A stretch of DNA of 64,000 nucleotides from Candidatus Spechtbacteria bacterium (GTDB lineage Bacteria > Patescibacteriota > Minisyncoccia > Spechtbacterales > JACPHP01): NCBI GenBank assembly GCA_016188605.1, contig JACPHP010000015.1, forward strand, positions 18,833 through 82,832, in the 5' to 3' direction. Shown here one piece after another: positions 38,399 through 59,940 of the stretch. Numbering within the stretch: the stretch's first letter is position 1; the number at the start of each line of letters is the position of its first letter. Under the pieces are notes generated by a model. The model did no database searches. It had not been told where the DNA came from and saw only the letters and a program-made list of their open reading frames with translations. The translations under genes were made by a program, and so were the position numbers.

Positions 38399-38417
38399 CC
38401 TATTCTAATCATTCAAC

Positions 38418-40545: not shown

Positions 40546-40693
40546 AAGCACTGACATCTTATACTCCCGCTTGATTTTACTCTCGAGGTTTCTAAGAGCG
40601 CGGCTTACTTGCCTTGCAGTAAAGCCAGTTTGTGCCTTTACGCGACCACTCCGATTTCCATCCGGAGTTAACTGACCTTAATAAACGCCTCCG

Positions 40694-41626: not shown

Positions 41627-41949
41627 CCACTCTTGAGGCTAGCGCCCCACTAAAACTGCCTACCATCCACTGTTCCCTGTGTTTCGCGCAAGGTTAGTTT
41701 TTACATTTTAAAAGATGGGTGTTGCATTGACGGCTCCATCTCGCCCGAAAGCGAAACTTCAAAGCCTACCCACTACGCTACGCAGTCAAAATATAAAAAC
41801 AATGGAAAGCTGCAGTAAAGCTCCTGGGGTCTTTTCGTCTTGTTGCAGGACAACGGCATCTTTACCGTTACTGCATTTTCACCTAGCTCTTCGTTGAGAC
41901 AGTTGCCCAGTCATTACACCTTTCGTGCGGGACAGAAGTTACCTGCCAC

Positions 41950-42994
41950 AATTATGTTACTACCCCAAATACAAATTGAGGACGGAAAGAGCGCTTCGGC
42001 TCCTTCTCTCTATGTCGCCATAGAGTTCAGACTATATCACATTCTCTGGACGAAATCGTACAGAGAGCTTTGGCATGTAGTCGTTGAGGGTTCGTTGCAA
42101 TTTATCTAATTTTTTTCTTTGCGTTATATGTCGTAAAGGATACTGATGAAGAAATATATTTGCAAAAGCTATAATCGTACTTTTTGCATTTGTTTCCCAA
42201 TGACGCAATCCATCCTTTCGCTTTCTCGTATTCCCAAAACCCGTAAAAGCTTTGAGAAGAGAGATAATCTTTTCATCTTTCATTGCGACTGCTATATAAG
42301 GCTCAAGACGATCGTTGCTTCTTTTCCAGCCGAATGATCCTTCGCCATCAATCACTCCAGCTAAAAAATATCCTACCGCATCACGAGAACTTTCCAATAA
42401 AGAAAAACTCTTTTTAATGCGTCCTTCTTCCTTTACTCTCCTTAACGCTTTTCTATATACGCCCATCACTATTGTCTTGCGGCGATGCTCTGCATGACCT
42501 TTATGTTGGTCAAGATATGAAACCGCAGCGCGCATAATTCTAATTCGTTCATTTCCCAAATCGCCACAAATTAGTGGGTACGTGGCAAGAAATGATAAAA
42601 TTATCTTTACTTTTCTTTTACCTCGAAAAGAAAGATTTAGAGCTCCTTTTACTTTAGAAATAACTCCATCATCCTCTCCAACAATTCTATTTATATCTTC
42701 AAGTAATACTCTATCAGAATTAGTTACGGTAATATCTGGCATATAGTAATGCCCAACAGGATGCTTGTTCCGAAACTTAATTACAGAACAAGACATTTCT
42801 GCAGCAAAAAATCCAGAATAATAGTGATGCGAAACTTGCAACGTTTCCTGCTGATTGTCTGACGGCCAAAAATTGACCACACCCGCAGCATTTTTACTCA
42901 TTATATATATTATACACTGAGTAGCTTAGGTTCTCCAGATGTTCCAGCATATAGCCAAATTTTCCAATAAGAGTCACCTCTTATGGTCCCCTGA
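41950..42994 (-). mobile_element. Group I intron (I4) at 23S ~L1931 (after GCGAAATTCC), carrying a LAGLIDADG ORF
   Basis: Exon ...GGTCCTAAGGTAGCGAAATTCC | intron | TTGTGGCAGGTAACTTCTGTCCCGCACGAA. S-element GTGATATAGTCTGAAC at 42044-42031. Confidence 0.6.
42032..42901 (-). CDS. LAGLIDADG homing endonuclease (289 aa, degenerate first motif)
   Basis: YFLAGVIDGEGSF motif, and an upstream YYSGFFAAEMSCS degenerate copy. Confidence 0.75.
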   Translation of the reverse strand: MSKNAAGVVNFWPSDNQQETLQVSHHYYSGFFAAEMSCSVIKFRNKHPVGHYYMPDITVTNSDRVLLEDINRIVGEDDGVISKVKGALNLSFRGKRKVKIILSFLATYPLICGDLGNERIRIMRAAVSYLDQHKGHAEHRRKTIVMGVYRKALRRVKEEGRIKKSFSLLESSRDAVGYFLAGVIDGEGSFGWKRSNDRLEPYIAVAMKDEKIISLLKAFTGFGNTRKRKDGLRHWETNAKSTIIAFANIFLHQYPLRHITQRKKLDKLQRTLNDYMPKLSVRFRPENVI

Positions 42995-43037
42995 CAGAGG
43001 AATTTCGCTACCTTAGGACCGTTCTTTAGTGTTAACT

Positions 43038-43397
43038 CATAGTCGCCTATGAGATCGGACTATATCATACCCATTGCAAGCTCTTCGGCATTCATTGAGC
43101 TTACGGGTTCTTGCGTATAGTCTCTGAGGATTCCCCACCAGAGTGGGGTCTTTCCTGCTGATTGTCCGCGTCACCGAATGGATTATTACTCAAAGAGTAC
43201 CATCGGATTCATGCGGAGTTTCCAGTCCCGCAAGCCTTCCACCATTCATAATTTACGAACGACGTGACTTACGGTTTCCCGATATTGTTTTTGATCGCCA
43301 CAGCAATACTGCGGGATCTAGATTTGTAGCTACTAGCTATTATCACAGACAAATCGGGAACATATAGCAAGATTTTTTAGCGTAACTACAACGGTCA
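43038..43397 (-). mobile_element. Compact ORF-less group I intron (I5) at 23S ~L1900-1917
   Basis: Exon ...GGCCGTAACTATAA | intron | (C)GGTCCTAAGG. S-element GATATAGTCCGATC at 43063-43045. Confidence 0.5.
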
Positions 43398-43439
43398 ATT
43401 TATAGTTACGGCCGACATTCACCGGCGCTTACAGCACGA

Positions 43440-43545
43440 GCCATCCTTCGCTCCTCACTTCGTGCGGAGCTACGGAGTGGCAAGCTGCTTTTACTGAAAG
43501 CATGCATCGCTCCGAAGCTCTTTGCGGAGCAAAGAGCGAAGGACG
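43440..43545 (-). repeat. Structured insertion, family B copy 1 (23S helix ~1850-1880 expansion)
   Basis: ccttcgctc...cttcg...ggagctacggagtggcaagc...gctctttgcggagcaaagagcgaaggacg with a perfect internal hairpin gctctttgc-gga-gcaaagagc. Related copies at 45405-45530 and 59285-59400. Confidence 0.6.
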
Positions 43546-44206
43546 ACAAGCGCTGTTTGACGTTCCGGCATTGGTCAGGTGTCACCCCCTATACATCCTC
43601 TTACGAGTTAGCAGGGAGCTGTGTTTTTGTTAAACAGTTGCCAGGCAAAATTTAACTGCGCCCATCTTGCGATGGGAAGGCATATTCCGAAGTTACGCCT
43701 AGCTTTTTTGCCGAGTTCCTTAACGAAGACTCGCTAGTTCACCTTGGGCTACTCGCCCTGCCTACCTGTTTCGGTTTGTGGTACGGGCCCAACTCATCTG
43801 ATCGTAGAGAATTTTCTTGGAAGACTGCTCTCTTAAATCGGTCTTGACGTGTCAAAACCTGTTTCCTACTTCATCGGTTTATACCATGCGGATTTACCTA
43901 CATGGCGACCTCAAAATAGAAACGTAAATCCAATAATACGCTTAAGATACAAATCTCCGTCATCCCATAGAAATGAGTTGAGGGGCTGGAATATTAACCA
44001 GCTGTCCATCCCCCAGAGCCTTTCGGCTGAGAGGTTAGGGCCGCCTAACCCTTGGATGATTGCCATTGCCAAGGAAACCTTAGGCTTTCGGTGGGCCGAT
44101 CTCGCATCGGCCATGCGGTTACTCATGCCAACATTCTCACTTCTCTACGCTCCACCGCCCCTCACGAGACGACTTCACAGCATAGAGAATGCTCTCCTAC
44201 CACGCC

Positions 44207-44332
44207 AATGCTCCGCATTGGCACACTGATATACACAGATACGAACACGGATATACACCGATTTTATCTGTGTTAATCCGTTTTCTTATCCACGTTAATC
44301 CGTGTGTCAGTGCGAAGCACTGACATCCACGT
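44207..44332 (-). repeat. IVS-like insertion, family A copy 2, at the classical 23S helix-45 (~1170) IVS site
   Basis: Identical to 40420-40545. Flanking exon TACCGAAGACGTG | A | GCGTGGTAGGAGAGCATTCTC aligns with E. coli 23S ~1160-1180. Confidence 0.7.
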
Positions 44333-44964
44333 CTTCGGTAATATATTTGAGCCCCGGTACATTTTCGGCGCAAGAACTCTCGACTAGTAAGCTGTTACGC
44401 ACTTTTTAAAGGATGGCTGCTTCTAAGCCAACCTCCTAGCTGTCTGAGAATTCTCACCTCCTTTTCCACTTAATATATATTTAGGGACCTTAGACTGTGA
44501 TCTGGACTGTTTTCCTCACGAGCGCGGAGCTTAGCCCCCGCGTTCTAACTCCCTTCTTATCAATTCAGGAATTTGGAGTTTGATTGATTCGCCTAGGCGA
44601 AAGCCACGACAAATCATCCAGTGCTCTACCTCCTAAATGAAACAGAAGAGGCCAGCCCTAGAGCTGTTTCGGAGAGAACCAGCTATTACCAGGCTCGATT
44701 AGTTTTTCGCTACTCCCCACAGTTCATCACATAGTTTTGCAAGGCTAACGTGTACGGGCCTCCCTCCAGTTTTATCCGGAGTTCACCCTGACCATGGGTA
44801 GCTCGCCTGGCTTCGGGTCTTATGTGTGCCGCCAAGTACGCCCTATTAAGACTTGGTTTCCCTACGCCTTCGTTCCCATCGGAACTTAGACAAGCGACAC
44901 AGATAAACTCGTTGGCTCATTCTTCAATAGGCACAGCGTCACTCCTCGCTACCGCTCGGAGCTC

Positions 44965-45095
44965 CGAAATCAAATCTCAAAAATCAAATCTCAAAATTGT
45001 GGTATCGCCTTGCGGCGATTATATAGTCTCGCAAAGCGAGACACCTTAGTTTTGAGATTTGAGATTTTAATTTTGAGATTAGAAGCTCGGAGCGA
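44965..45095. repeat. 'atctcaaa' word-palindrome element inserted inside the 23S gene
   Basis: ...gctcggagc|tccgaaatcaaatctcaaaaatcaaatctcaaaattg...ttttgagatttgagattttaattttgagattagaa|gctcggagc.... 9-bp direct repeat gctcggagc at both borders. Confidence 0.55.
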
Positions 45096-45162
45096 TAGCG
45101 ATAAAGCTCCGCTTCTCTGTAGGCATATGGTTTCAGGTACTATTTCACTGCCCTCACCGGGC

Positions 45163-45201
<39 letters not shown>

Positions 45202-45404
45202 ATCATCAAAAGTATTTAGCCTTAGCTAATAGTATAGCTAGATTCGCTCGAGGCTTTCGTTCCTCGAGTTACTCAAGAATAGCAACAGGAGATGTGAATT
45301 TTTCGTCTACGGGACCATTACCCTCTTTGGTCGCCCTTTCCAGGGACATTCGACTAAATTGCACATTTTGTGACTCCTTTGGATTGCTCCAATGCTGCCA
45401 TCTT

Positions 45405-45530
45405 ACAACCCCCATCCTTCGCTCTTTACTTCGTAAAGAGCTTCGGAATGGCAAGCCACTATATAAATTTCTGGCATGCTGTTCCGTAGCTCCTTGCGGA
45501 GCAAAGAGCGAAGGACGGGTTTGGGCTTTT
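45405..45530 (-). repeat. Structured insertion, family B copy 2 (23S 5' domain)
   Basis: ccttcgctctttacttcgtaaagagcttcggaatggcaagcc...ctccttgcggagcaaagagcgaaggacg. Confidence 0.55.
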
Positions 45531-45829
45531 CCCTGTTCGCTCGCCGCTACTGAGGGAATCATAGTTATTTTCTTTTCCTCCGCTTACTGAGATGTTTCAC
45601 TTCAGCGGGTGTGGGTTCCAGCTTGCGCTGGAAGAATGCGGTTTTGCCGCACTGAGTTTCCTCATTCGGAAATCCCCGGATCATAGGTTGCTAGGCACCT
45701 CCCCGAAGCTTATCGCAGCCATGCTACGTCCTTCATCCCCTTTTGATGTCAAGGCATCCACCATACGCCCTTAAAAATGTTTGCATGATGCAGTTAAATG
45801 CTCCTCGCTATGCTCGCTCGTCGCAGACG

Positions 45830-47808: not shown

Positions 47809-48008
47809 GCGTTGAAGAAAGAAAAAAGGCCACCTACAAATAGAAAAACTCGCCTATGGCGAGTTTTTCTATTTGTCTGGTCAAGTCTAATACTCAAAAA
47901 ATTAACTACGCGAGGGAGTATGAAAAATGGTCGTTAAAATAGACAATATTTCGAATACTGCAAGAATCGGACTCCTCTCGCGATAATAAGCGTTAGCATT
48001 TATAGCTT

Positions 48009-48048
48009 TGGTGGACCATGGGAGAATCGAACTCCCATCTCCCGGATG
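48009..48048 (-). pseudogene. Partial duplicate of tRNA-Ala (3' 40 nt, anticodon loop through CCA) plus 12 nt of 3' flank
   Basis: tggtggaccatgggagaatcgaactcccatctcccggatg identical to 48127-48166. Shared flank atttatagcttt. Confidence 0.7.
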
Positions 48049-48126: not shown

Positions 48127-48200
48127 TGGTGGACCATGGGAGAATCGAACTCCCATCTCCCGGATGCAAACCGGGTGCTCTGCCACTAAGCTAATGGCCC
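48127..48200 (-). tRNA. tRNA-Ala (anticodon TGC), CCA encoded
   Basis: GGGCCATTAGCTTAGTGGCAGAGCACCCGGTTTGCATCCGGGAGATGGGAGTTCGATTCTCCCATGGTCCACCA. G3:U70 Ala identity pair present. Confidence 0.85.
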
Positions 48201-48278: not shown

Positions 48279-48313
48279 TTTCAGCCTGAGGCTGATCCGC
48301 CTCTGGCGGAAAA
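48279..48313. repeat. Twin-hairpin G+C-rich repeat (cagcc-tgag-gctg / ccgcc-tct-ggcgg), copy at the tRNA side of the foreign cassette
   Basis: ttcagcctgaggctgatccgcctctggcggaaaa. Inverted near-identical copy at 56162-56196. Related copies at 8281-8315, 56010-56030 and 56390-56415. Confidence 0.65.
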
Positions 48314-48377
48314 CCGCCTCGCTAAAGCGAGAGGCCAAACCTAAACTTTCCGACGAAAGCCAAGCAGTTGGCTTTCG

Positions 48378-48403
48378 TCCTCTGCCACTAAGCTAATGGC
48401 CCA
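48378..48403 (-). pseudogene. Partial duplicate of tRNA-Ala (5' 23 nt)
   Basis: ctctgccactaagctaatggcccaa identical to 48178-48203. Confidence 0.65.
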
Positions 48404-48519
48404 ATGCGCGCAAATTACAAAGCACAGAACACAAAAGCCAAACAAACCACAAAAGCACAAAATTACAAACACGAAACGTTTGGGATTTGTAATTTGTGTT
48501 TTGGAATTTACAAACCTAG

Positions 48520-48591
48520 TGGGCGCGGAAGGAGTCGAACCTTCCGCCTCTTTCTTATCAGGAAAGCGTTCTACCGCTGAACTACGCGCCC
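48520..48591 (-). tRNA. tRNA-Ile (anticodon GAT)
   Basis: GGGCGCGTAGTTCAGCGGTAGAACGCTTTCCTGATAAGAAAGAGGCGGAAGGTTCGACTCCTTCCGCGCCCA. Anticodon loop CTGATAA. Confidence 0.85.
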
Positions 48592-48711
48592 GCAATAAAG
48601 AATACAGAATCTAGAATACCGAATACAGGGACGGAATAAACTGCGATACTATCTTTTTTACAACAATAACCAATATGGCACAAGTACCACATATTTGTCA
48701 GGGTTCTGATA

Positions 48712-48739
48712 TTGACTTATAGTTTAATCGTTTTATAAT
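48712..48739 (+). promoter_or_regulatory. Near-consensus sigma70 promoter (TTGACT, 16 nt, TATAAT) for the 48822 gene
   Basis: Direct reading, followed by a leader with AAAGGAGGT SD 5 nt before GTG. Confidence 0.6.
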
Positions 48740-48821
48740 CACGACACTCTCTTGAACTGCACAGAAATGCAAACGAGAAGCTGTATTTTCACAAATTATA
48801 ACAATCGAAAGGAGGTATCTG

Positions 48822-50645
48822 GTGCTAACATCATTAGTTCCAGTCGAGTCATTACTCGACCCCGTTCTTGCTGCCGCAGTATGGCCTGAAAGTATTACAA
48901 GCAATGAAGTTTTCAAACAACAGCTTGAACGGCGCAGGGAGCTGATAAAACGCCTCGAAGACGTCATTTGCTCTCTGCCCCGGCCAGATATGCCTATCGG
49001 GACAGCTATTGATCTGGGGTATATCACCGAGGAACAAGTTGCGGCACTCTATGAATCTCTAAGCGATTTGCTGCAAGACCCGTACTACAAGCGCATTGTC
49101 TTCTATCTTCCATTTGAATTCTTGCCCAACAGAACGTGGGACCATTTCGGGGAAAAACTCCGACAGGTCGCTAGACTATTTAGGCAGGTATACATGGATG
49201 CTTGGTGGCATCTGCTTCTAGTGCAAGACGTACGCGCCAATTTCGTAGATGGCGACGTGCTTGAAGTAGGGCAGAGAGTCGGCGACTTGCCGCGAGTAGT
49301 GAAGGCGGCTCATCTCATACCCAAGCTCGTTGAAAACGGCTTGCTAGAGATTGAGGACGTCATATCTCTCATGGAAAAAGCCAACGATCAGGTGCTGAAA
49401 GATAGCATTGCCGATGCGCTCCCCGTTCTAGCAGATATGGGATTTATTCCAGATACAGAAGCTGACACAGAATCAGCTGAAGCAACACCAAAGCCGATTA
49501 CGCTTACATATGTTCGCAAAAAATTGGATAAAGCGTTCTCTAGAATAGATACTGAAGATTTCGGCAGTATCACGAAGGGTCGAAAAAATTGGCTTGTACA
49601 AAAAAAGAGGCAAGAAGCCATCGATGCCGCTGGAGAAGATATATGCACAGCAATCGTTCGAGGAGAGCTCTCTAATGAAATAACGGCGAGCTTTCTCGCT
49701 TACGGAGATTCTGCTATGCAGCGAGTGCTTGTCGAAGGAATTAGAGCGGCCATTGAGTCCGTCGCGCTAACTAACGTTAGCAGGGCGCACGCACTGTACG
49801 CTCAGTATAAAGAAACTTTGCTAGCACTTTGGGAGAGCGACGATCCTGATATCGGGGAAGCGCTATCCAAAACTTTCCGCCGGCTCCATTACCTCGGTAT
49901 TGTTGATGACCAACGGCTGTCGGAGTTAGGAATAGTCATTCCACGTCTCGCAGGACCTTTCTCTAAAAATCTTAGGTCAATGGGAAAGGACTTGCGCGAT
50001 ATAGAAACGATGGCCGCGTCTATCAAATGCAACAGCGAGCTGTCGCGGCTCATATACCCGGGGGTTCTCATGTACGGCTCGCGCATCAAGGGATACGGCG
50101 CGCAAAATTCTGATATTGACCTTGCCGTATTTGTGAGGCCGGGAACGCCTTTTGCTGGCAGGTCGGAGCTACAAAAACTACTTGGACAAACTTTCGCGCA
50201 TAATGCGATTCGCGGCCAAGTTGTTGAATTCTGGCTGGAAGAAAAGGGCGAGATACTTCGAATTCGTGACTTCAATAGTTCTGATGTATATCTGGGAGAA
50301 AGCTATTGGACACATGTCCTGTTTGGCGCCGTATGGATGGGCGGCGATGATACAATACGTGAGTTGTATGAAAAACTGCTGACTCCATATATGCGCGATG
50401 ACGGTAATATAATTTTTGGCCGCGGCGCAATAAGCATCTACTTGGAGGAAACAGAACGAGACACTCTACAGTACAGGTTGATGCATAAAGGATATGAACG
50501 ATTCTTCCCGCCATGCGGCGGCATACACACACCCCATTCAGATAGAATTAATGATAGTAGCATGTTCTGGGATTCGGGATACAGGCAACTTGCAACAATG
50601 CTGTTTGTAAGCAGAGTTTTTCTGCCGAATATCCCAGTTGTATAA
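48822..50645 (+). CDS. Large protein with C-terminal pol-beta-type nucleotidyltransferase domain (GS...DID minimal NTase core)
   Basis: 607 aa. LMYGSRIKGYGAQNSDIDLAVFV fits hG[GS]x9-13Dh[DE]h. ~400-aa helical N-terminal region of unknown type. Strong SD, GTG start. Confidence 0.5.
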   Translation: MLTSLVPVESLLDPVLAAAVWPESITSNEVFKQQLERRRELIKRLEDVICSLPRPDMPIGTAIDLGYITEEQVAALYESLSDLLQDPYYKRIVFYLPFEFLPNRTWDHFGEKLRQVARLFRQVYMDAWWHLLLVQDVRANFVDGDVLEVGQRVGDLPRVVKAAHLIPKLVENGLLEIEDVISLMEKANDQVLKDSIADALPVLADMGFIPDTEADTESAEATPKPITLTYVRKKLDKAFSRIDTEDFGSITKGRKNWLVQKKRQEAIDAAGEDICTAIVRGELSNEITASFLAYGDSAMQRVLVEGIRAAIESVALTNVSRAHALYAQYKETLLALWESDDPDIGEALSKTFRRLHYLGIVDDQRLSELGIVIPRLAGPFSKNLRSMGKDLRDIETMAASIKCNSELSRLIYPGVLMYGSRIKGYGAQNSDIDLAVFVRPGTPFAGRSELQKLLGQTFAHNAIRGQVVEFWLEEKGEILRIRDFNSSDVYLGESYWTHVLFGAVWMGGDDTIRELYEKLLTPYMRDDGNIIFGRGAISIYLEETERDTLQYRLMHKGYERFFPPCGGIHTPHSDRINDSSMFWDSGYRQLATMLFVSRVFLPNIPVV

Positions 50646-50648
50646 AAT

Positions 50649-50677
50649 AAAGCCGTTGGTTTCACCAACGGCTTTTG
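50649..50677 (+). terminator. Hairpin aaagccgttggt-ttca-ccaacggcttt followed by tg/taatt
   Basis: Immediately after the 48822-50645 stop, between convergent genes. Confidence 0.55.
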
Positions 50678-50746
50678 TAATTGAAGAAGACCACCCCGCA
50701 ACTGCAAGGTGGCCTCAATTTTATAGATTAAAGAACAAAAAACGAA

Positions 50747-51892
50747 TTAGTTACCGCTACGGCGGTGTTCAGTGCCAATACCGGTAAGCCGTTTACTTGC
50801 AGACGCGCTGGCGCTGAGCTGGTCCCAGGGAATCTGGGAGCCAAGCATGTACAGCGCGCCAAAGTACTGCAATTCTTCATTGCCGGCTGGCTGATCCTTG
50901 ACCCGCATGACCGCCAACACGAATCGAGTCAGGTTGGTCTCCAGCCGCGGATACGTGGCAGAAACCGCTACACCGAGCTGTCGAATCATCTGGTCACGGT
51001 TAGCGGCACCGATCAACGCTGGCAGACGGGTATTTTCCAGGGTTTCTTTGATCTTGGATGCGTCATAAGCGAGCGCAGCCGCGATCTGAACTCCCGTTCC
51101 CGCAAAAACCTTGTTTACAGAATCGGCCATTGCATCTGCTGCGTCACGCAGCCCGCCTGTATCCGGCGGCTGCATCATGCCCGAAGGCATAGCGCCACCA
51201 CCGCCGACCATCGCCATCATGGCATTCATCATAAGAGCAGGATTTGCTGCGCCCTGCACCCACGCATCCTGCCAGGATTTAAGCTGTCCATAGAAAGTCG
51301 TAATCGCTGGCCAAAGATGCTCATCAATGCGCTGAAAAAGCTGCTTCTTTCGCGCTTCAGTCACATACGAACCATCCAAACCGTCGATCGCCGCAAAGAT
51401 CTCAGCATAGCTGCGTCGCGTCATTTCCTTTCGAAGCTTAAAAAACTCCGGATCAACCTGCTCTTCGTTCGTATCCGCAAATCTCTCCATCAAGCCAGCG
51501 AGCACATCCGGGATACTGAAGAGGCCTGCCCGGTATGCCAGTGCCGCCCGAACTGCCGAAATAACAGTGGATTGATCAACCTTGAGGATTCCACCAGTTC
51601 GAAGCGCTTCCAGCCAAGAAGCATCGGTGGGCACTGCGGGAAGCACAGCATCAAAAGAAATGGCTCCCATTGTACTTACTGCGGGCGGCTCAGCCACTGG
51701 CTTAGCCGGTGCAAGCGCTTTGAGCAAATTCCTTGCCGGCAATACTTTCATGCCGACTCCGACGAGGTCTTGCTCTGTCAAACCAGCCAGATCTTCCACG
51801 GTCGTAGCACCAAGATCAGAAATAATCTTCTCAATCACTTCAGATGCAACGCCCATAGACTCAAGTTTGGCAGTTACTTCAGTGACTTCCAT
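50747..51892 (-). CDS. Hypothetical protein with N-terminal tandem helix-hairpin-helix-like segment
   Basis: GVASEVIEKIISDLGATTVEDLAGLTEQDLVGVGMKVLPARNLLKAL. SD AAAGGGG 8 nt upstream of ATG. Confidence 0.4.
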   Translation of the reverse strand: MEVTEVTAKLESMGVASEVIEKIISDLGATTVEDLAGLTEQDLVGVGMKVLPARNLLKALAPAKPVAEPPAVSTMGAISFDAVLPAVPTDASWLEALRTGGILKVDQSTVISAVRAALAYRAGLFSIPDVLAGLMERFADTNEEQVDPEFFKLRKEMTRRSYAEIFAAIDGLDGSYVTEARKKQLFQRIDEHLWPAITTFYGQLKSWQDAWVQGAANPALMMNAMMAMVGGGGAMPSGMMQPPDTGGLRDAADAMADSVNKVFAGTGVQIAAALAYDASKIKETLENTRLPALIGAANRDQMIRQLGVAVSATYPRLETNLTRFVLAVMRVKDQPAGNEELQYFGALYMLGSQIPWDQLSASASASKRLTGIGTEHRRSGN

Positions 51893-51914
51893 TTTCTTTA
51901 CCCCTTTCGCGGTT

Positions 51915-53300
51915 CTACCTGCACATCTTATCCCGCTCGGTACTTCCCAGCGAGATCATTCTAACTTGCACTCCCAGCTTTTCTCCAATTATACTGGCAC
52001 AAAACGAGTAAAGCTCGCTTGGTGTGGCGGGCGATGGAACTTTCAGGGTCGTAATTTCCGGCTTGCAGCGCGAAAGCTGTTTGCCGAGCGATTCCTGATA
52101 TTCCAACTGATTGTTATCCGTTCCCACACGGACTTTGATTGCGCCCGTGGGCGTAAAATATGTAGGATCGTCCGCGCCGAGATAACGGTCGCATATACGC
52201 CACTCTCCGTTAGCCACAATTTGATCGAACCATGTGACGGCCAGGCCATTGAATGCATTTGGGCCGCCGCAAACTTCTATAGCGTAACGAAGTAAAACGA
52301 GATCCAGCGCCCCTACGCGCACTTCTCCCTGATAGCGGTTGCTTTCTTTGTGACTGCCTGGAAGCAATCTTTCTGCCATCTCGGGATTGGCAGTAGGCAT
52401 CGGACCCGCACCGTGGCGAATTGCGTATGCTCGGAACACTCCGAAATTCACAATCTCTCCGTCGTAGCCAGCATCTATAAGCATCGCTTGCGTAAAGCAC
52501 GGCAATGTTCGAATGGCGCTTACGTGCGGATAGAAACCGTGAAAGTGATCGGTGATAACTCCGTGCGAGCTTTCAACTACAACCACACCGTCCCGAGCAA
52601 GGACTTCTCGCTCAAGATATTCATGGCCGACAATCTTAGCTCGCCGCGATACTTCTTCAAACCGTTCGGCAATATAGTCGAGGAAGCCGTCATCATAAAG
52701 AAGAGCAACTTCCTTTTGCATCGCCTCACGGTCGCTAGGCAAGAACTCGCCGCCAATAGTCTCGTTGAGATCGCTGCGTATTTGCTCTCGCACGCAAACA
52801 AGCAAATCTTTCAGATCGGGCCGCGACAAATCGCAGGCTCGAATCGTAAGATCCGGATACTGTTGCAAATAGCGATACGCTTCACCAACGCCTGTGCCAA
52901 TCGTGCCGCGAGGATTATTACCACGTGACATTTCTTTCAGGCGCGACGCAATTCCGTGATAAGGCGTGGCGCACAATGCCATTTCATCTACCGTCAGCAG
53001 ACCAAACGGATTGTGTATGCCGTGCTGATATCGAAGTGCGTCAGACTCATTAAGTAAACCTTCTGGAGAAACGATAAACCGAGCGGAGATATGCGTGTTA
53101 ATGCCTTCGAATGTGCCGCATCCCCACTGGCTGAAAGCAAAGCTCTCGCCACGCGAAGTGCGGACACCGTGGCTTCCCTGCGCGCCTCCGACTTTCACGA
53201 CGGTGTGGGCACGCATCATTGTTGCGATTTTGTGCACCACACCGCCCTTGCCGCCGTCACCAGGACCGAGGTCGGTGACGGTGTAGACTTTCTTGGTCAT
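51915..53300 (-). CDS. Divergent adenylosuccinate-synthetase (PurA)-like enzyme
   Basis: P-loop GPGDGGKGGVVHK (PurA GDEGKGK); VKVGGAQGSHGV (PurA GGHNAGHT); NPRGTIGTGVGEAY (PurA TTGRGIGPAY); ESSHGVITDHFHGFYPHVSA (PurA [21 protein letters not shown]); HGAGPMPT (PurA RVGAGPFPT). The aspartate-binding TTGRRRRTGW loop is replaced by SNRYQGEVRVG. ATG at 53300 with GAGGAAGGTGG SD. Confidence 0.6.
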   Translation of the reverse strand: MTKKVYTVTDLGPGDGGKGGVVHKIATMMRAHTVVKVGGAQGSHGVRTSRGESFAFSQWGCGTFEGINTHISARFIVSPEGLLNESDALRYQHGIHNPFGLLTVDEMALCATPYHGIASRLKEMSRGNNPRGTIGTGVGEAYRYLQQYPDLTIRACDLSRPDLKDLLVCVREQIRSDLNETIGGEFLPSDREAMQKEVALLYDDGFLDYIAERFEEVSRRAKIVGHEYLEREVLARDGVVVVESSHGVITDHFHGFYPHVSAIRTLPCFTQAMLIDAGYDGEIVNFGVFRAYAIRHGAGPMPTANPEMAERLLPGSHKESNRYQGEVRVGALDLVLLRYAIEVCGGPNAFNGLAVTWFDQIVANGEWRICDRYLGADDPTYFTPTGAIKVRVGTDNNQLEYQESLGKQLSRCKPEITTLKVPSPATPSELYSFCASIIGEKLGVQVRMISLGSTERDKMCR

Positions 53301-53310
53301 CGTCGCCACC

Positions 53311-53350
53311 TTCCTCGGTACGCCGAAGTCTCGCTTGGCGAGACTTCGGC
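53311..53350. promoter_or_regulatory. Perfect 17-bp-stem palindrome ggtacgccgaagtctcgc-ttgg-cgagacttcggcgtacc inside the cassette operon, abutting the PurA-like SD
   Basis: Direct reading. No T-run, so more likely a processing/stability or attenuator element than a terminator. Confidence 0.4.
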
Positions 53351-53379
53351 GTACCTTTCAATCTTGATTTGGTAACTGG

Positions 53380-54537
53380 CTAGAGCCAGTTGGGTCCGTC
53401 GTCGGAGTCCTCGTCTTCGGAATCTCCAGAAGTAGCCGAATCAATTTCACTAGGATCGACCGGCCAGAGGTCGGTCTTTTCCCTGAAAAGATCGCCGGCC
53501 TTCGGAAGCTTATCGAAGTTCGGAGAAAGCATCTGAGCTCCGAGAGGAATATGCGCAACTGCGTGAATAATCTGACGCGCACTGAATTCTGAAACATTAT
53601 GCTCCGTAAGAAATTCCAAAGCAGACCCCAGGCTCAGCACGCCCTCCATGAGACCGATGATTATTGCCTTTACACAGTGCAGGTTGTTCGTACCTTCAGG
53701 AAGCATAACGAAATGACCAGCTCCATACAAATCGCTCCACTGATCTGCAACATCCCGACGATTTCCAACCTGCAAAAAGAAGGCATGCGCCTTGGTCTGT
53801 AGATCCCTGACTACTTGCGCGGTGTTAGGCAGTTTTCCATTACTGAAGTCATAACCATTTTCTTTGGCATGCTCCAGTACGTCATCTCCGTAAATCTTCT
53901 TCAGCCAACGCGGATCGATAGTTTCAACGATCGGCTCGTCAGAGATCGTGAAGTGATAGTACTTCAAGCCCCATCGGTTAATCGCTGCATTAGTCAAGTA
54001 CACAGCGCCGAAAAGACCGAACTGTGGATCTTCCTTGCCGTTACCTTGACCCCTACGGCCAGGCACTAAATGAGTCATCTGGGAAGCAATTTTCTCGTCC
54101 ATCTCAAATTGAGTACGACATAGCACAGGCACGTCTTCTCCATCTTCAACGTCGTTGAATATGGCAGTTGCAATCTGAACGTCATATCGACCTAAAATAG
54201 GACGACTGCCGCTGGTCAGCATCTCGTAAGAACTAGGCAAGACATCAAATGCTGTATCTACGTTGCCCCCCATAGAACCGGTTGTATCTAGCAAATCTTC
54301 TTCAGCCATAGGAATACCGCAAGTCAGGACCCATAAGTTACCGCGCTTCTCAAAACGCGGCAGAGATCGACGAATGGGCCCGAGATGAGCAGGTCCTTTC
54401 GGATCCACCAGCGGATCTAGACCTTGTCCTTGGTGCATTCGCTCTTCAGCACCGCTGGTAGCTTTCTTGGTTCCATTAGACGTAGCGCTATAACGAACTC
54501 CGGTATAACCAGACCTTGAAAATGTATTCTTCCCCAT
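53380..54537 (-). CDS. Hypothetical protein with vWA-like (MIDAS DxTxS) segment and acidic C-terminal tail
   Basis: LLDTTGSMGG MIDAS-like motif. C-terminal SGDSEDEDSDDGPNWL. SD AAAGGGG upstream. Confidence 0.4.
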   Translation of the reverse strand: MGKNTFSRSGYTGVRYSATSNGTKKATSGAEERMHQGQGLDPLVDPKGPAHLGPIRRSLPRFEKRGNLWVLTCGIPMAEEDLLDTTGSMGGNVDTAFDVLPSSYEMLTSGSRPILGRYDVQIATAIFNDVEDGEDVPVLCRTQFEMDEKIASQMTHLVPGRRGQGNGKEDPQFGLFGAVYLTNAAINRWGLKYYHFTISDEPIVETIDPRWLKKIYGDDVLEHAKENGYDFSNGKLPNTAQVVRDLQTKAHAFFLQVGNRRDVADQWSDLYGAGHFVMLPEGTNNLHCVKAIIIGLMEGVLSLGSALEFLTEHNVSEFSARQIIHAVAHIPLGAQMLSPNFDKLPKAGDLFREKTDLWPVDPSEIDSATSGDSEDEDSDDGPNWL

Positions 54538-54567
54538 ATTATTCGCCCCTTTCTTTGCTATACACGC

Positions 54568-55380
54568 CTACAATGATTCCGTAGTGAAAGGATGATACTT
54601 GCGCTCCCAGAGCAAATCGATTAGTTCATAGAACGCCAAGTGCGCTCTTTCCGCGTTGCTCTCGCTACCGCGGGCTAGACGCCAAAGATAGTCTGTGTAC
54701 CTACGAAAAGCCTCGTCGCCGTCATTTGGGATTGTACCCGTTTTTAGGTCGCCTCCCAGCGCAACAACAACCGATTGCGCCGCTTGAGAAATCTCTTGGC
54801 GCCTAACCTCTACGGGAACTGTGTCGGTATGTATCTGCGCGAATGACCATTCAAAAATCACCACATAGTGTTCCTTCGGCTCAATCACTATATTCTTCCC
54901 GCTCAACAAGTTAACCGAGATTCCTTCGTTGTGCAAGAACGCAAGCAACTTGAGAAGTTTGCCCATAATCCATGCGCTAGTGCGCAAATCAACCCGCAGG
55001 CGGTCTTTTGCCGTGATGTTAATCAGCGGCACCATATCGCCTACATTCTCTACATTCCTAAACGCAAAAACATTAACTTGACGCCCGCCCTGCTCAGTAC
55101 AGATGAAGCTATCCATAAGCTCGGGGAAACCAAGCTGGTAGTTAAGAGGTTCATCGGGACGAGCGTACTCCACTTCGAGCTCTTCAGCACGGCGCTGCAG
55201 TTCTTTAAGAATATAGGCGGCACGCTGAAGCGCGCCGTTGTCCTTAGTTTCGTTAGCAATCTGCAAAATATATTCGCGCTTTACTCCTTCCTGCGTACAT
55301 AGGTAAAGCCGATATTTGCCGGCTTCTGCTACCTTTTTGCCGACTTGATAAACGTGATGACCATTGCGTATAGTGATCAC
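54568..55380 (-). CDS. Protein-kinase-like fold protein with degenerate catalytic motifs (atypical kinase or pseudokinase)
   Basis: LHNEGISVNLLSGKNIVIEP resembles the HRDLKPENI catalytic loop with D->N. DFG replaced by IFEWSF. Likely GTG start at 55380, preceded by SD GAAAGGAGGG. The track ORF extends to 55536 through the leader. Confidence 0.4.
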   Translation of the reverse strand: MITIRNGHHVYQVGKKVAEAGKYRLYLCTQEGVKREYILQIANETKDNGALQRAAYILKELQRRAEELEVEYARPDEPLNYQLGFPELMDSFICTEQGGRQVNVFAFRNVENVGDMVPLINITAKDRLRVDLRTSAWIMGKLLKLLAFLHNEGISVNLLSGKNIVIEPKEHYVVIFEWSFAQIHTDTVPVEVRRQEISQAAQSVVVALGGDLKTGTIPNDGDEAFRRYTDYLWRLARGSESNAERAHLAFYELIDLLWERKYHPFTTESL

Positions 55381-55391
55381 CGAATTTCCCT

Positions 55392-55668
55392 CCTTTCGTA
55401 CTTGTATTGTAAAGGGACACAATAAACTAGTGCTGATAGTATTGTGTATAACCTGTCTTGTCAAGAGCGGCGTAAGTAACCCCTCACACCCCTCGTGAGT
55501 CATTGCGAGCCCCAAGGGGGCGTGGCCCGCCAGCAACGCCTTAAGCGTAGCTTTGGCGGGCTGGCAATCCCGCTCGTATGTGGTAACGAGATTGCTTCAC
55601 GCTACGCTCGCAATGACGTATAATAAGATTTTGATATAGGGGGTGTGGGGGGTTACCATAGCGACGCA
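55392..55668 (-). promoter_or_regulatory. Structured ~280-nt 5' leader of the cassette operon (candidate cis-regulatory RNA)
   Basis: 12-nt perfect inverted repeat GTCATTGCGAGC ... GCTCGCAATGAC enclosing ~100 nt of nested G+C-rich stems (agcgtagc/gctacgct, cccgcc/ggcggg). No match to a riboswitch class I can name. Confidence 0.35.
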
Positions 55669-55678
55669 TTATATGGCA

Positions 55679-55706
55679 TGATTCCTAATGCTCAATATAT
55701 TTTAAA
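55679..55706 (-). promoter_or_regulatory. sigma70-like promoter (TTGAGC, 16 nt, TATAAT) reading into the cassette operon
   Basis: Direct reading on the minus strand. Confidence 0.5.
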
Positions 55707-55796
55707 AGAACTTTATTTAAGATTAGCAAATGGTGATAATAGTGTCAATAGTACACTATTAACAGGTTAAAATTTTATGAATTATTTATGCGGTTT

Positions 55797-55838
55797 TGAA
55801 TTTCACTTATCATACACGGCCGTGTATGATAAGTGAAA
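55797..55838. terminator. Perfect 20-bp-arm palindrome atttcacttatcatacacgg-ccgtgtatgataagtgaaat
   Basis: One of a run of hairpins (also 55920-55945 and 55960-56000) downstream of the 16S 3' end. Confidence 0.5.
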
Positions 55839-56161
55839 TTCAAAATGTTAACAAAATAATCCACCTATGATAAAGCAGAGGCAATAAGTATCACAAACAA
55901 AACAAACTAGTTCTTCGGGGACGGCAGAAATGCCGTCCCTTTTTCATACAATGCAAAACCCTCTGCCTTAGGCAGAGGGTTTTGCATAACTGACAGAATC
56001 ATTGCGTAAAGAAAATTTCTTATCCGCCTCAGGCGGAACATTGAACATCTAAGAGTTGCTCCAAATTGGTAACTCTTTTCTTGCGAAAAGAGATTTTAGT
56101 CTCAGACATTTGAAGGCTTTGAGACTAACGCCTTGCCTACCTTTAGCTAATCATACAGAAG

Positions 56162-56196
56162 CTTTTCCGCCAAAGGCGGATCAGCCTCCGGCTGAA
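56162..56196. repeat. Twin-hairpin G+C-rich repeat, inverted copy at the 16S side of the foreign cassette
   Basis: Reverse complement reads ttcagccggaggctgatccgcctttggcggaaaagc. 33/35 match to 48279-48313. Confidence 0.65.
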
Positions 56197-56344
56197 GCGA
56201 AGGCGGGCAGATATTAAAGCACGAATTCGATGCTTCAATATCGTCGACTCCCGATATTGTATCAAGCAAAAGCTTAATAAAAAATCAAGAAAAAATGATC
56301 CATCCACAGCTTCCGCTACGGATGCCTTGTTCATGTTTACCTGT

Positions 56345-56790
56345 ACTTTTCAATACAGCACGGACTATATCTTCATCCTTTTGTTTTGTAACAATCCGCC
56401 TGAGGCGGACAAAAAGGAGCCAACGTGTAGTCTCTACGGGGTTAATGTGTGCTAAATGATGGGGGCGAGAGAACGCGCTCTCTCGCCTTGATGAAAGAAA
56501 TAAAATGCATTCGTGCTCTTTGTGCGGGCGATTTTTCGGCTTGGGTATGCATCCCCGCGCCGATATAACGTGCGCGGCCACGCTCACTAGCACTTTGCGC
56601 ACAAGTTACACAGAACTACTTCATTCTCCCATCATTCAGCACACATAACTTCCCTCGGTATTGCCTTCATTCCTTTATTATACAACGAATGTCACATAAT
56701 AAAGAGGAGGGTTTCACCGATACAGTTAGATTTTGCAATTGCCTTGCGGCAAAAGGTCGCAACGACCAGAATGGTCTGACGACTTCGTCC
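56345..56790 (-). mobile_element. ORF-less group I intron at the 16S ~S1506 site (between GAAGTCGT and AACAAGG)
   Basis: Exon comparison with E. coli 16S. S-element GATGAAGATATAGTCCGTG at 56384-56365. Confidence 0.55.
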
Positions 56791-56869
56791 TTGTCACTGA
56801 TCTTACCGTGGGCCCACTTACGTGAGACTTCGGGTACTACCAGCTTCACTGACGTGACGGGCGGTATCG

Positions 56870-57893
56870 GGATCAATGAGCATATCATCGTCCCACGCCA
56901 CCGGACGAACGGTTTTACCGTATCCTGGCGGCTTCCATCGAATGCTTCTTGCCAAGAAAACGCATCTGTTCACGCAATCGCACCATTTCGCTGAAACCCT
57001 TATCTGTAAGGTGTTCTTTATTGCGATACATAGTGACAATTCTCTTAAACAGTATGTATGTTTTTGCTTTCTTTGCTTGAAGATGATTTGCATCTAAAAA
57101 TGGAAAAAGATACGCTACCAAATCTTTTGAACTGGTAATTTTATACTTCGCGTGGGGGTACCATCCGTACCTCTCATACGAGCAATCATATATTTTCCCA
57201 CAACCAATTGTCACAAGAATTCGTTCGAGGATTTCACGATCATCTGCGCGGAGTTCGATTTCAAACTCGGCACGTATTTCGACAGAGCGAGGATGTTTAT
57301 AATCTCGTTCTTTTCGTTTTCCAACGCTTACCGCAAACGATCCTTCACCATCAATGAATCCTGCGACATATTGAGGAGGCAATTTTTTTCGATGAATTCG
57401 CTCCTTTCCAATCGGACCCTTCAAAGATAAATTTCTTTGGAAAGGTTTACGACTGGTACTACGAGCTCTGCTGACTTCTTGCATGGAATAAATAAAAATT
57501 ACTTTCTATCCTTCTATAATCCCAAGGTTATTTTACCGTGGAAATTAATACCAAACAAGATCTCCCCCGGTCATCTATAAAACAATTTGAAAACATCTCG
57601 ATCACCCTATACGTAGCAATAAATATACACAAAGTGACTTCCCCATGTACTCGAAGGGTGGTCTTATTACTACGCCTCAACAGTGATTCAAGCTATCTTC
57701 TGCTACCCTCGATTGTAGTTGTAACTATAATCGAGACCAAGTTTAACTTGATTTCGCCCTTCATCCTGGGGGTCACCCCTCGCAGGACTGCGATTTTGCT
57801 TCAAAGCGCTTTGTTCGCTTCGGTTGGACTTCTCACCAACAATAAAGTGGAAAGTCACCAACTCGTTCCATAAACTGCAGGGCACCCGAGTAC
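56870..57893 (-). mobile_element. Intron in 16S at ~S1391-1396 (after CTTGTAC) carrying a LAGLIDADG ORF
   Basis: Exon discontinuity CTTGTAC | ~1 kb | ACCGCCCGTCAC. No canonical S-element seen, so intron subclass is uncertain. Confidence 0.5.
56915..57484 (-). CDS. LAGLIDADG homing endonuclease (single-motif)
   Basis: YVAGFIDGEGSF motif. 189 aa. Confidence 0.8.
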   Translation of the reverse strand: MQEVSRARSTSRKPFQRNLSLKGPIGKERIHRKKLPPQYVAGFIDGEGSFAVSVGKRKERDYKHPRSVEIRAEFEIELRADDREILERILVTIGCGKIYDCSYERYGWYPHAKYKITSSKDLVAYLFPFLDANHLQAKKAKTYILFKRIVTMYRNKEHLTDKGFSEMVRLREQMRFLGKKHSMEAARIR

Positions 57894-58357
57894 AAGACTC
57901 GGGAACGTATTCACCGCGCCATAGCTGATGCGCGATTACTAGCGATTCCGGCTTCATGAGGTCGAGTTGCAGACCTCAATCCGAACTGGGGCTAATTTTG
58001 ATGGGATTTGCTCCGCCTTACGGCTTGGCGTCCCTCTGTAATTAGCCATTGTATCATGCGTGTTGCCCAGGGCATCAAAGGGTCATGCTGATTTGGCGTC
58101 ATCCCCACCTTCCTCCCCGTTATGCGGGGCAGTATCGTGTGACACATATAACACACAATAGGGGTTGCGTTTGTTACCGGACTTAACCGAGCGCCTCACG
58201 GCACAAACTGACGACAACCATGCAACACCTGCCCAATTGTCCTTGTGAGACATTCTCCCTTTCGGGAGAACTTCAACTGGGTGTCAAGCCCTGGTGAGGT
58301 TCCTCGTTTGTCATCGAATTGAACCGCATGATCCACCGCTTGTGCGAGTCCCCGTCT

Positions 58358-58389
<32 letters not shown>

Positions 58390-58796
58390 ACCCAGGCGGA
58401 ATACTTAACGCGTTAGCTTCGCCACGTGTAGGGTCGACACTACACACAGCTAGTATTCATCGTTTACAGCGTGGAATACTGGGGTATCTAATCCCATTCT
58501 CTCCCCACGCTTTCGTCCCTCAGCGTCAGAGTCATGCCAGCTGATTGCCTTCGCCTTTGGTGTTCCCCATGATATCAACGGATTTCACTCCTACACCATG
58601 AGTTCCATCAGCCTCTCATGCTCTCTAGTTTTGACGTTTCCTGCGCAGATTCAAGGTTAAGCCCTGAAATTTAACACTGGACTATCAAAACCGCCTACGG
58701 ACGCTTTACGCCCAATAATTCCGGATAACGCTCGGGGCCCTCGTATTACCGCCGCTGCTGGCACGAGGTTAGCGGCCCCTTATTCCTGAAGTACAA

Positions 58797-58940
58797 TCAA
58801 ACCGCTCCTCGCTACGCTCGGAGCACACCGATAAACGCAGATACGAACACGGATATACGCGGATATAATAATCCGTGTAAATCCATTTTCTTATCCGTGT
58901 GAATCCGTGTACGTTCCGAACGCAGTGAGGAACGGTCTTT
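58797..58940 (-). repeat. IVS-like insertion (family-A-related) in the 16S ~450-480 variable loop
   Basis: ~140 nt absent from E. coli 16S between ...CTGAAGTAC and GAAAAGCAGTTTACAACCCGAAGG. Shares cgaacacggatatac / ccgtgt words and a ccgaacgcagtgaggaac end with the 23S copies. Confidence 0.6.
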
Positions 58941-59284
58941 TTCCTTCAGAAAAGCAGTTTACAACCCGAAGGCCTTCATCCTGCACGCGGCGTCGCTCGG
59001 TCAGGCTTTCGCCCATTGCCGAAGATTCTCGACTGCAGCCTCCCGTAGGAGTAGGGCCCGTGTCTCAGTGCCCTTGTTGGGGGTCGTGCTCTCACACCCC
59101 CTACCCGTCATAGCCTTGGTGGGCCATTACCTCACCAACTAGCTGATAGGCCACAGGCCATTCCAGTACCACCTGAGTTTTACTTGCTCTTGCGAGCAAG
59201 ACCATCAAGTATTAGCTCCGATTTCTCGGAGTTATTCTTGAGTACTGGGTATGTTCCTATGTATTACTAACCCGTTCGCCACTA

Positions 59285-59400
59285 TCCTACGCTCCGCGCT
59301 ACGCGCGGAGCTACGGAATAGCAAGCTCTCCCATATTTTGAGCGCCTGCGATTCCGAAGCTCCTCACGCAGTGAGGAGCGAAGGATCGTTCGACTTGCAT
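59285..59400 (-). repeat. Structured insertion, family-B-related, in the 16S 5' domain (V1 region)
   Basis: cgctccgcgctacgcgcggagctacggaatagcaagctc...gcgattccgaagctcctcacgcagtgaggagcgaaggatcg. Confidence 0.5.
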
Positions 59401-59408
59401 GCCTTATC

Positions 59409-59440
<32 letters not shown>

Positions 59441-59940
59441 GAACTCTTAAAATAAACGAAGTTTATTTTAAGCCCATCCGAAGTTCCGACGAAGTCGGAA
59501 CGCAGGAGGGCCATACAAAACTTCGTTAAATACCAATTTGAAACAACTCTTGAATGTTCAACGTAAAGTTGCAGAGCAACCACGTTGCAAGCAACATAAA
59601 GGGCTCTACGCCCCACGTTGCAAGCAATAATTGTTTTTGTTTCTCGCACATTTGTATATTTGAGGGTGTTGCTCCTCGCCTATACGTTGCCCCCTTCGGG
59701 GGACTTGGCTCTAAAATGTTACGTAGAAATATAAATAAATATACTTCTACGTTTAATAATAATTACAACGTAAAGTTGCGTGGCAACTCCGTAAAGAGGG
59801 CGTGGCCCTCCACGGAGGGTTTTACGCCCCACGTTGCTTTACGCAAGAAAATGTAATTATTATTAAAGCTGATTCTGTTCAGTTGTTAATGTTCATCCGA
59901 AATATTTTCTATTAAATACAATACTTTCGGATACGTAGAC

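Follow-up and report, generated by a model that had tools for sequence, protein, structure and literature searches.

Among the small palindromic repeats of bacteria, REP/REPIN doublets are short GC-rich palindromes that go with RAYT transposases (IS200/IS605-like Y1 enzymes), and Rickettsia palindromic elements (RPEs), about 100-150 bp in length, are restricted to Rickettsia and relatives. Small repeats have been the subject of a review (PMC3184786), RPEs are mentioned in PMC1779305 and PMC10969869, and mitochondrial GC clusters, double-hairpin elements and repetitive hairpin-forming elements in PMC4478555 and PMC2800124. Phage T4 SegB is a free-standing GIY-YIG homing endonuclease encoded in a tRNA gene cluster (PMC13096335), and the prokaryotic Slx1-like cluster was described by Dunin-Horkawicz et al. 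as a minimal stand-alone GIY-YIG domain (PMC1564403). Here we analyse two inverted copies of a double hairpin, hereafter the twin, in a 64-kb stretch of DNA (the window, by which we mean the whole stretch; it belongs to an 83.6-kb contig) whose RpoB and proteins near the repeats are the NCBI entries MBI2463221-MBI2463240 of a Candidatus Spechtbacteria metagenome-assembled genome (MAG) from the Parcubacteria, within the Candidate Phyla Radiation (CPR). The two copies lie in an rRNA operon and enclose tRNA-Ile and a block of five protein genes; a sequence-only reading had proposed, among other options, that the pair might mark the two ends of a mobile but non-autonomous cassette.

Our analysis indicates that the two arms are probably independent solo copies of a dispersed 30-nt double-hairpin element, that their bracketing of the gene block is coincidental and that they are not cassette ends; most likely, they neither move the block nor delimit it. 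The inverted repeat itself is real, its arms measuring 34 nt each, being complementary at 32 of 34 positions (94%) and standing 7849 nt apart; the earlier description as 35 nt with 33 matches had included an extra flanking base that is in fact mismatched. Each arm consists, as had been recognised, of two adjoining hairpins; both are perfect, with 6-bp stems and 3-nt loops (TCAGCC-NNN-GGCTGA and TCCGCC-NNN-GGCGGA). Read on the minus strand, the left twin is TCCGCC-AGA-GGCGGA followed by TCAGCC-TCA-GGCTGA, with TTT and AA as flanks. With up to three mismatches allowed, the 34-nt repeat has just two copies in the 64 kb and none in 100 dinucleotide-preserving shuffles. The inverted orientation of the two copies is nevertheless uninformative, a coin toss, because the element is nearly its own reverse complement. 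The window holds two twins, two single units and one degenerate triple, all of them non-coding and without a nuclease gene; the units beyond the pair had been noticed before, and only their coordinates had to be shifted, to those of Table 1. CCGCC-NNN-GGCGG is the most frequent 5-bp-stem hairpin of the window, and a further ~7 kb of the source genome beyond it contained no hairpin.

Structure and spread of the repeat family

The core of the element is 30 nt long and is built as an inverted dimer of a 15-nt unit (6-bp stem, 3-nt loop), with the consensus tTT-TCCGCC-RRA-GGCGGA-TCCGCC-TYY-GGCGGA-AAa drawn from 123 copies. On either strand, loop 1 is purine-rich and ends in A, and loop 2 begins with T and is pyrimidine-rich; it is because of this loop rule that the twin can be regarded as an inverted dimer of one 15-nt unit with fixed handedness. 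The CCGCC stem is used in 81% of units and CAGCC in 18%, CGGCC variants also occurring, and both window copies are of the CCGCC(RRA)-CAGCC(TYN) subtype, which accounts for 21 of 125 copies. The centre of each twin is a perfect palindrome of 12-14 nt containing GATC.

Species-representative genomes (one per species) scanned with TCMGCCNNNGGCKGATCMGCCNNNGGCKGA, a pattern demanding both hairpins, yielded at least 120 stretches, against a chance expectation estimated at ~0.03. Among the matches listed are CPR genomes of the Kaiser-, Portnoy-, Lipton-, Uhr-, Doudna-, Moran-, Campbell- and Saccharibacteria and of other lineages, as well as, outside the CPR, Omnitrophota, Ignavibacteria, Kiritimatiellae, Verrucomicrobiota, Elusimicrobia, Binatia, Lentisphaerae, a Prosthecochloris and several proteobacterial MAGs. 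The matching assemblies include single-cell and long-read ones, and 13 viral contigs also carry the twin pattern. The flanks of the copies are unrelated, the consensus and the loop rule are kept, and the element enters DNA as a clean 30-nt insertion that duplicates no target sequence, usually at a step from T-rich to A-rich sequence. The family occupies at least 120 unrelated places; at the family level it is widespread in the way that, for the sequence-only reading, would make the bracketing coincidental. Since one of ~133 twin-bearing loci lies near a 16S gene (L078, in the 16S to tRNA-Ile spacer; loci are denoted by L-numbers), rRNA spacers are an occasional and not a defining site. Rfam contained no family matching the hairpins or the tRNA-Ala spacer of the window, and no description of a 30-nt twin element was found in the open-access literature, with the motif searched as text included, which leaves room for an earlier account elsewhere.

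A substantial share of the copies lies within protein genes, 54 of 125 sites (~40%) being located inside open reading frames (ORFs) of at least 150 aa. A separate stop-to-stop count placed 62 sites in open frames of 150 aa or more, and the three frames were used in the proportion 46:6:10, favouring the one that reads SAxGGSAxGG; this skew is not an artefact of ORF calling, because the other frames have no stops either. Consensus RRA/TYY copies have a length that is a multiple of three and no stop in any frame, and can therefore survive inside essential genes. The host genes encode ValRS, CysRS, AspRS, PheT, UvrB, Mfd, RpoC, an ArsA-like ATPase and a type I restriction subunit. Two AspRS genes carry the element at different positions, each being empty at the site occupied in the other, and a solved AspRS structure has a gap at the element. 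The RpoC of the window lacks the insert present in that of L110, and several further pairs of homologues show gaps of 5-10 aa at the element; comparison of UvrB with solved structures gave no clean gap at the element, in a region that is variable. In ValRS, L053 reads GYF-SAEGGSASGG-NPD, whereas each of the 25 homologues displayed (the first of 59 with the PPN motif) has GYF directly followed by NPD or something close to it. The insert occurs in none of the 59, and, because the homologues join GYF to NPD, it corresponds to exactly the 30-nt core placed between TTC and AAT without duplication. We note that L113 (CysRS), L121 and L122 have other GC-rich palindromes in or near genes, of CCCTC...GAGGG types that read PPYQGG or PLWGRG, a hint of further families of in-frame hairpin elements.

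Association with GIY-YIG and tRNA genes

Clustering of the ORFs within 2.5 kb of 125 sites returned one recurrent small family, GIY-YIG proteins of ~80 aa, and no recurrent family of the RAYT (Y1 HUH transposase) kind. These proteins match PF01541, have the UPF0213 proteins BH0048 and EF2693 as their closest solved relatives and belong to the prokaryotic Slx1-like cluster. The hairpin-selected loci (~1 Mb) contain nine small GIY-YIG ORFs, of which five are within 50 nt of a twin and a sixth is at 177 nt. As a control for selection bias, 80 metagenomic loci were fetched purely by homology to one ~80-aa GIY-YIG protein. A hairpin unit was present within 150 nt of the gene in 27 of these 80 loci, and in 26 of the 27 closest homologues; seen from the hairpins, 44 of 52 units were within 150 nt of the gene (36 of these 13-56 nt upstream of the ATG) and the other 8 were scattered over the remaining ~170 kb. 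A tRNA gene on the same strand followed the nuclease gene within 150 nt in 42 of the 80 loci (tRNA-Ser in 26), and in 23 of 40 loci the first 10 nt of the tRNA were repeated upstream of the ATG.

The resulting module has a recurrent order: a short leader with tRNA nt 1-12, the twin hairpin, tRNA nt 13 to ~22, the GIY-YIG ORF and an intact tRNA gene of the same kind. This anatomy is alike for tRNA-Ser (four anticodons), tRNA-Cys and tRNA-Tyr. Among the hairpin-selected loci, the twin splits a tRNA-Ser copy in the D-loop (L065) or in the anticodon loop after nt 35 (L080, L046), and tRNA-like fragments in L018 and L088. Comparison of the pseudo-copy with the intact tRNA of the same locus reveals a clean 30-nt insertion in L146, L155, L065, L018, L088 and L080. 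One filled/empty polymorphism was observed by direct alignment, the otherwise near-identical loci L149 and L150 differing by a 50-nt indel that contains the twin; a scripted all-against-all comparison of the fetched loci reported no filled/empty pairs. More distant GIY-YIG relatives have other GC-rich hairpins at the same place, in 42 of 77 loci as against 11 of 116 control windows. A second clade (L242-L246, ~88 aa, Patescibacteria) maps between rpsT and ruvA or beside an RNase T-like gene, with no hairpin and no tRNA nearby; this suggests a housekeeping role in junction processing, distinct from that of the tRNA-nested clade.

The surroundings of the left arm in the window partly resemble this module. 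On the minus strand, the order is a 5' fragment of tRNA-Ala, 68 nt with two unrelated hairpins, the twin, a 79-nt spacer, the intact tRNA-Ala, a 78-nt spacer and a 3' copy of the same tRNA whose break point at nt 36 is that of L080 and L046. Fragment, twin and intact gene thus follow each other as in the module, with the differences that there is no ORF or GIY-YIG remnant and that the twin comes after nt 23 instead of nt 12. The tRNA-Ala duplications (47995-48404) look like the remains of insertions into the tRNA gene, and the left-arm site may be a nuclease-less relic, or a non-autonomous relative, of the tRNA-nested GIY-YIG module. Elsewhere in the window, a possible 10-nt copy of the start of tRNA-Leu sits between the degenerate hairpin copy and tRNA-Leu. 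Tandem ~33-nt copies (aaattacattttgttgtaatttttgttaaacgtag) are also found in that interval, at 8320-8400.

The eukaryotic relatives of the small GIY-YIG nuclease are structure-selective junction and hairpin cutters. By analogy, the ~80-aa nuclease might recognise, make or move the hairpin or a cruciform formed by it, and solo copies might be its non-autonomous relatives or repair footprints, standing to it as REP sequences do to RAYT transposases. The window copies are all solos without a nuclease, lodged in tolerant non-coding RNA-gene surroundings, namely the 16S trailer, the tip of an intron P8 helix, the scrambled tRNA-Ala duplication and the leader of tRNA-Leu. In its widest and distinctly tentative form, which we regard as worth entertaining rather than as favoured, the proposal is that the twin serves as the cis element, or was left as the footprint, of a class of mobile DNA so far unrecognised, one driven by tRNA-nested minimal Slx1-like GIY-YIG nucleases, spreading across bacterial phyla and seeding clean, duplication-free and frame-preserving insertions into essential genes (RpoC, aminoacyl-tRNA synthetases, UvrB, Mfd).

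Several points weigh against the interpretation of the twin and its window copies given so far. The link between nuclease and hairpin is an association, and hairpins could have entered by another route and built up in neutral tRNA pseudo-copies. We know of no integration activity of a bare GIY-YIG domain. No GIY-YIG gene or remnant was found in ~72 kb of the source genome, nor did an unfiltered search of the window for remnants, at E-values up to 50, return any. Some of the coding matches are ordinary Gly/Ser-rich linkers, as in the DnaJ of L118. Finally, all perfect units of the window are within ~250 nt of either arm, so that their placement might have local significance and not simply reflect the availability of non-coding DNA.

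Alternatively, the hairpins could be RNA elements that serve the host as terminators or as processing or stabilising signals, and that arose by convergence rather than by mobility. Stable GC-rich stems in AT-rich spacers beside RNA genes are what such elements would look like, and a position 13-56 nt upstream of the start codon in the GIY-YIG loci could affect expression. We nonetheless consider this improbable: identical stems across phyla combined with free loops argue for common descent or sequence-specific recognition, and many copies are inside ORFs, where termination would be lethal. Intrinsic termination, one of the roles suggested by the sequence-only reading, was rejected as a candidate on the ground that on either strand the T's precede and the A's follow the hairpins, which never have a downstream U-tract. 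Of the identities put forward in that reading, a REP-like family came closest to the truth, in that a dispersed hairpin family does exist; it is, however, not species-specific and not just intergenic, and its candidate partner is a GIY-YIG protein and not a RAYT.

The pair within an interrupted rRNA operon

The rRNA operon of the window is on the minus strand and heavily interrupted, in the order 16S, tRNA-Ile(GAT), tRNA-Ala(TGC), a PAP2 gene, an MscS-like gene, 23S and 5S (Table 1). The "full-length" 16S call of Rfam covers 57844-59454, and reading of the minus strand shows that the gene continues further, resuming after its first insertion with ACCGCCCGTCAC...GAAGTCGT. The right twin lies in the 16S 3' trailer, ~100 nt beyond the mature 3' end and within the putative 16S processing stem. 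The left arm had been assigned to the interval between 16S and tRNA-Ile; it actually lies between tRNA-Ala and tRNA-Ile, and as a consequence the pair encloses tRNA-Ile in addition to the five genes, and with them the 3' arm of that stem. A chloroplast origin, which the intron-rich rRNA might suggest, was rejected, since the other large genes are bacterial in type, with unsplit RpoB, unsplit RpoC, FtsK and RNase J, and the proteins are those of the Spechtbacteria MAG.

Table 1. Positions in the window of the hairpin units, the tRNA and rRNA features and the five-gene block
Feature	Position	Strand	Remarks
Left twin hairpin	48280..48313	-	30-nt core 48281-48310; predicted fold -21 to -23 kcal/mol
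Right twin hairpin	56163..56196	+	30-nt core 56166-56195: TCCGCC-AAA-GGCGGA followed by TCAGCC-TCC-GGCTGA
Single 15-nt unit TCCGCC-TCA-GGCGGA	56023..56037	none	abuts 3' arm of 16S processing stem
Single 15-nt unit TCCGCC-TGA-GGCGGA	56395..56409	none	P8 tip of ORF-less 16S group I intron
Degenerate three-hairpin copy	~8277..8322	-	perfect CCCGCC-TCT-GGCGGG at 8294-8308; in spacer, ~310 nt upstream of tRNA-Leu(CAG)
Possible tRNA-Leu 5' pseudo-fragment GCGGACGTGG	8532..8541	+	identical to first 10 nt of tRNA at 8634; putative
Duplicated tRNA-Ala 3' part from nt 36 (anticodon loop) with 14-nt trailer	47995..48048	-	98% identity; 78 nt downstream of intact gene
Intact tRNA-Ala(TGC)	48127..48200	-	
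Duplicated tRNA-Ala 5' fragment, nt 1-23	48377..48404	-	96% identity; 179 nt upstream of intact gene
tRNA-Ile(GAT)	48519..48591	-	inside repeat pair
Five-gene block	48822..55536	mixed	conserved syntenic module, not hairpin-bounded
16S processing stem (putative), 3' arm	56038..56071	-	34 nt, 85%; duplex -45.7 kcal/mol
16S processing stem (putative), 5' arm	59531..59564	-	pairs with 56038-56071
16S rRNA gene	56290..59454	-	two insertions; true 3' end near 56290
16S insertion 1	about 56870..57895		~1 kb, near E. coli position 1390; LAGLIDADG ORF 57484-56915
16S insertion 2, ORF-less group I intron	56341..56771		just before last helix; 35 bits, E = 3e-7, under Rfam gathering score
23S rRNA gene	38600..45770	-	starts at 45770; region split by large insertions
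23S insertions, LAGLIDADG ORFs	42032..42901, 40694..41344, 39058..39537		
23S insertion, group I intron	39875..40311		
5S rRNA gene	38525..38414	-	

This location raises the question of whether the arms pair in the pre-rRNA, looping out the 7.8-kb insert and bringing the 16S trailer to tRNA-Ala and 23S in the manner of an RNase III stem. Both arms are inside the operon, on the strand of 16S, tRNA-Ile, tRNA-Ala and 23S, and the arm-arm duplex is predicted at -70 kcal/mol. Each arm, however, folds stably on itself and would do so during transcription, one of the enclosed genes is encoded in the reverse direction, and the stretch between the arms contains several strong hairpins. The 16S moreover has a leader/trailer stem of its own, and what the pair flanks is not an rRNA but protein genes and tRNA-Ile. 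Given also that solo copies elsewhere occur without a partner in ORFs and spacers, and that 16S neighbourhoods are so rare among twin loci, we regard this pairing as very improbable.

The enclosed block comprises a gene for a 607-aa nucleotidyltransferase-domain protein on the plus strand, convergent with four genes on the minus strand whose products are of 381, 464, 385 and ~275-322 aa. The 464-aa protein is PurA-like (PF00709), with hundreds of Patescibacteria homologues at 63-79% identity, and the three others have no Pfam domain. All five are found again, with order and orientation kept and at 46-77% identity, in three further genomes of Parcubacteria (L139/L140, L141 and L142/L143). The neighbourhood is different each time, and neither a C[ACG]GCC-NNN hairpin nor an rRNA gene is present within 10 kb; in L142, tRNA-Lys, tRNA-Ile and tRNA-Ala genes are ~2 kb from the block, with no rRNA gene there.

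That the arms are the terminal inverted repeats of a ~7.9-kb non-autonomous mobile cassette inserted in the rRNA operon is, in the light of these data, scarcely credible. The arms do have the form of terminal repeats, being 94% complementary and unique within the window, yet this carries little weight for an element that is itself near-palindromic and whose 30-mer is present on its own at 120 or more unrelated sites. The block does stand out by a G+C content of 49-53%, as against about 45%, and by Shine-Dalgarno-like leaders that most window genes lack, on account of which it may have been acquired horizontally, but that does not make the hairpins its ends. In the Logan assemblies of public sequencing runs, the block appears as a separate 7-kb contig, with breaks at ~48547 (inside tRNA-Ile) and ~55551, which miss the arms; the Logan contigs with neighbouring genes end short of both arms. 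No target-site duplication was found outside the arms, the outer flanks (...ctggaaagtt and gcgaaggcgg...) having nothing in common, and searches of Pfam, NCBIfam and PADLOC revealed no transposase or integrase domain in the five block proteins. A longer direct repeat considered on either side of 16S (55.5 kb and 59.8 kb) proved to be a mere short similarity. To this is added that tRNA-Ile and the processing-stem arm lie within the pair and that the block exists in three other genomes without the repeat. Just as little credence is due to an inversion of the 7.9-kb segment by recombination, homologous or site-specific, with the arms as its substrates, where near-identical 34-nt inverted copies and the GATC palindrome at each twin centre are offset by the lack of a recombinase gene nearby, by the wrong strand on which tRNA-Ile and four genes would end relative to the operon, and by the retrieved Logan contigs, none of which reaches the arms, having no alternative junctions.

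The window has further features of interest around the operon and the block. Long perfect palindromes of 52, 37 and 44 nt, at 55794-55845, 55951-55987 and 47251-47294, occupy spacers around the block and are unrelated in sequence to the twin. The 3' tail of the 16S (~56290-56312, minus strand) reads GGATCATTTTTTCTT, and the CCUCC anti-Shine-Dalgarno is absent. By a rough count on predicted ORF starts, an upstream GGAG, GAGG or AGGA is lacking in 24 of 27 long ORFs; the exceptions are ORFs 48822 and 51915, which belong to the five-gene block, and 60628, and the block ORFs 50747 and 53380 have AAAGGGG alone. Beside the 5S, a 1-kb island (36930-37975) has 66.7% G+C as against 45% for the genome, with long ORFs on both strands and no Pfam match. 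On the plus strand, which is not that of the rRNA operon, a hairpin and GATCACCTCCTTTCT, the canonical 16S 3' tail, come immediately before it.

Comparison with known systems and significance

For the window, the outcome is that a tempting but mistaken reading falls away, namely that of the gene block inside the rRNA operon as an inverted-repeat transposon. Of wider bearing is a minimal palindromic element that is common to distant phyla, is tolerated in core genes and is statistically tied to the ~80-aa GIY-YIG proteins, a very large family that is abundant in the CPR and has no assigned function. Should the link be causal, it would provide these proteins with a function and add a new class to the few enzymes known to mobilise REP- or MITE-like DNA (MITE, miniature inverted-repeat transposable element). 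It would also account for the origin of some short Gly/Ser/Ala-rich insertions in CPR proteins and of the tRNA-gene fragments found around CPR tRNA genes, and would supply a 30-nt marker to annotation pipelines, which at present translate the element or call spurious features.

Foremost among the systems to which the twin family may be compared are the REP/REPIN sequences, with which it shares dispersed short GC-rich palindromes, an inverted doublet as functional unit, a non-autonomous nature and solo copies that far outnumber those beside the candidate enzyme gene. It differs from them in its partner, a minimal tRNA-nested GIY-YIG nuclease instead of an HUH transposase, in being shorter (15 and 30 nt) and of low density with many coding copies, and in a sequence common to many phyla, where REPs are species-specific and extragenic. 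In-frame insertion in protein-coding genes is a trait shared with RPEs, if not by the window copies, which are all non-coding; the twin is set apart from RPEs by its 30-nt length, its occurrence in many phyla (CPR and others), its candidate nuclease partner and its connection with tRNA genes.

The mitochondrial hairpin elements are likewise small GC-rich hairpins or double hairpins in AT-rich genomes; they occupy spacers, introns and the variable regions of rRNA, and there is evidence that they are mobile, although they encode no enzyme of their own. They are organellar and lineage-specific, their sequences are unrelated to the twin and, to our knowledge, a link to GIY-YIG genes at tRNA genes has not been described for them. 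SegB, for its part, recalls the module in that a small GIY-YIG gene is found among or beside tRNA genes, its plausible targets, with duplicated tRNA segments around. SegB-type enzymes possess a DNA-binding domain and have no dispersed hairpin, whereas the twin-linked proteins are bare ~80-aa Slx1-like domains. Set beside these systems, the twin repeat family looks like a variant of the REP/MITE/RPE kind that has so far gone undescribed and whose candidate partner is unusual.

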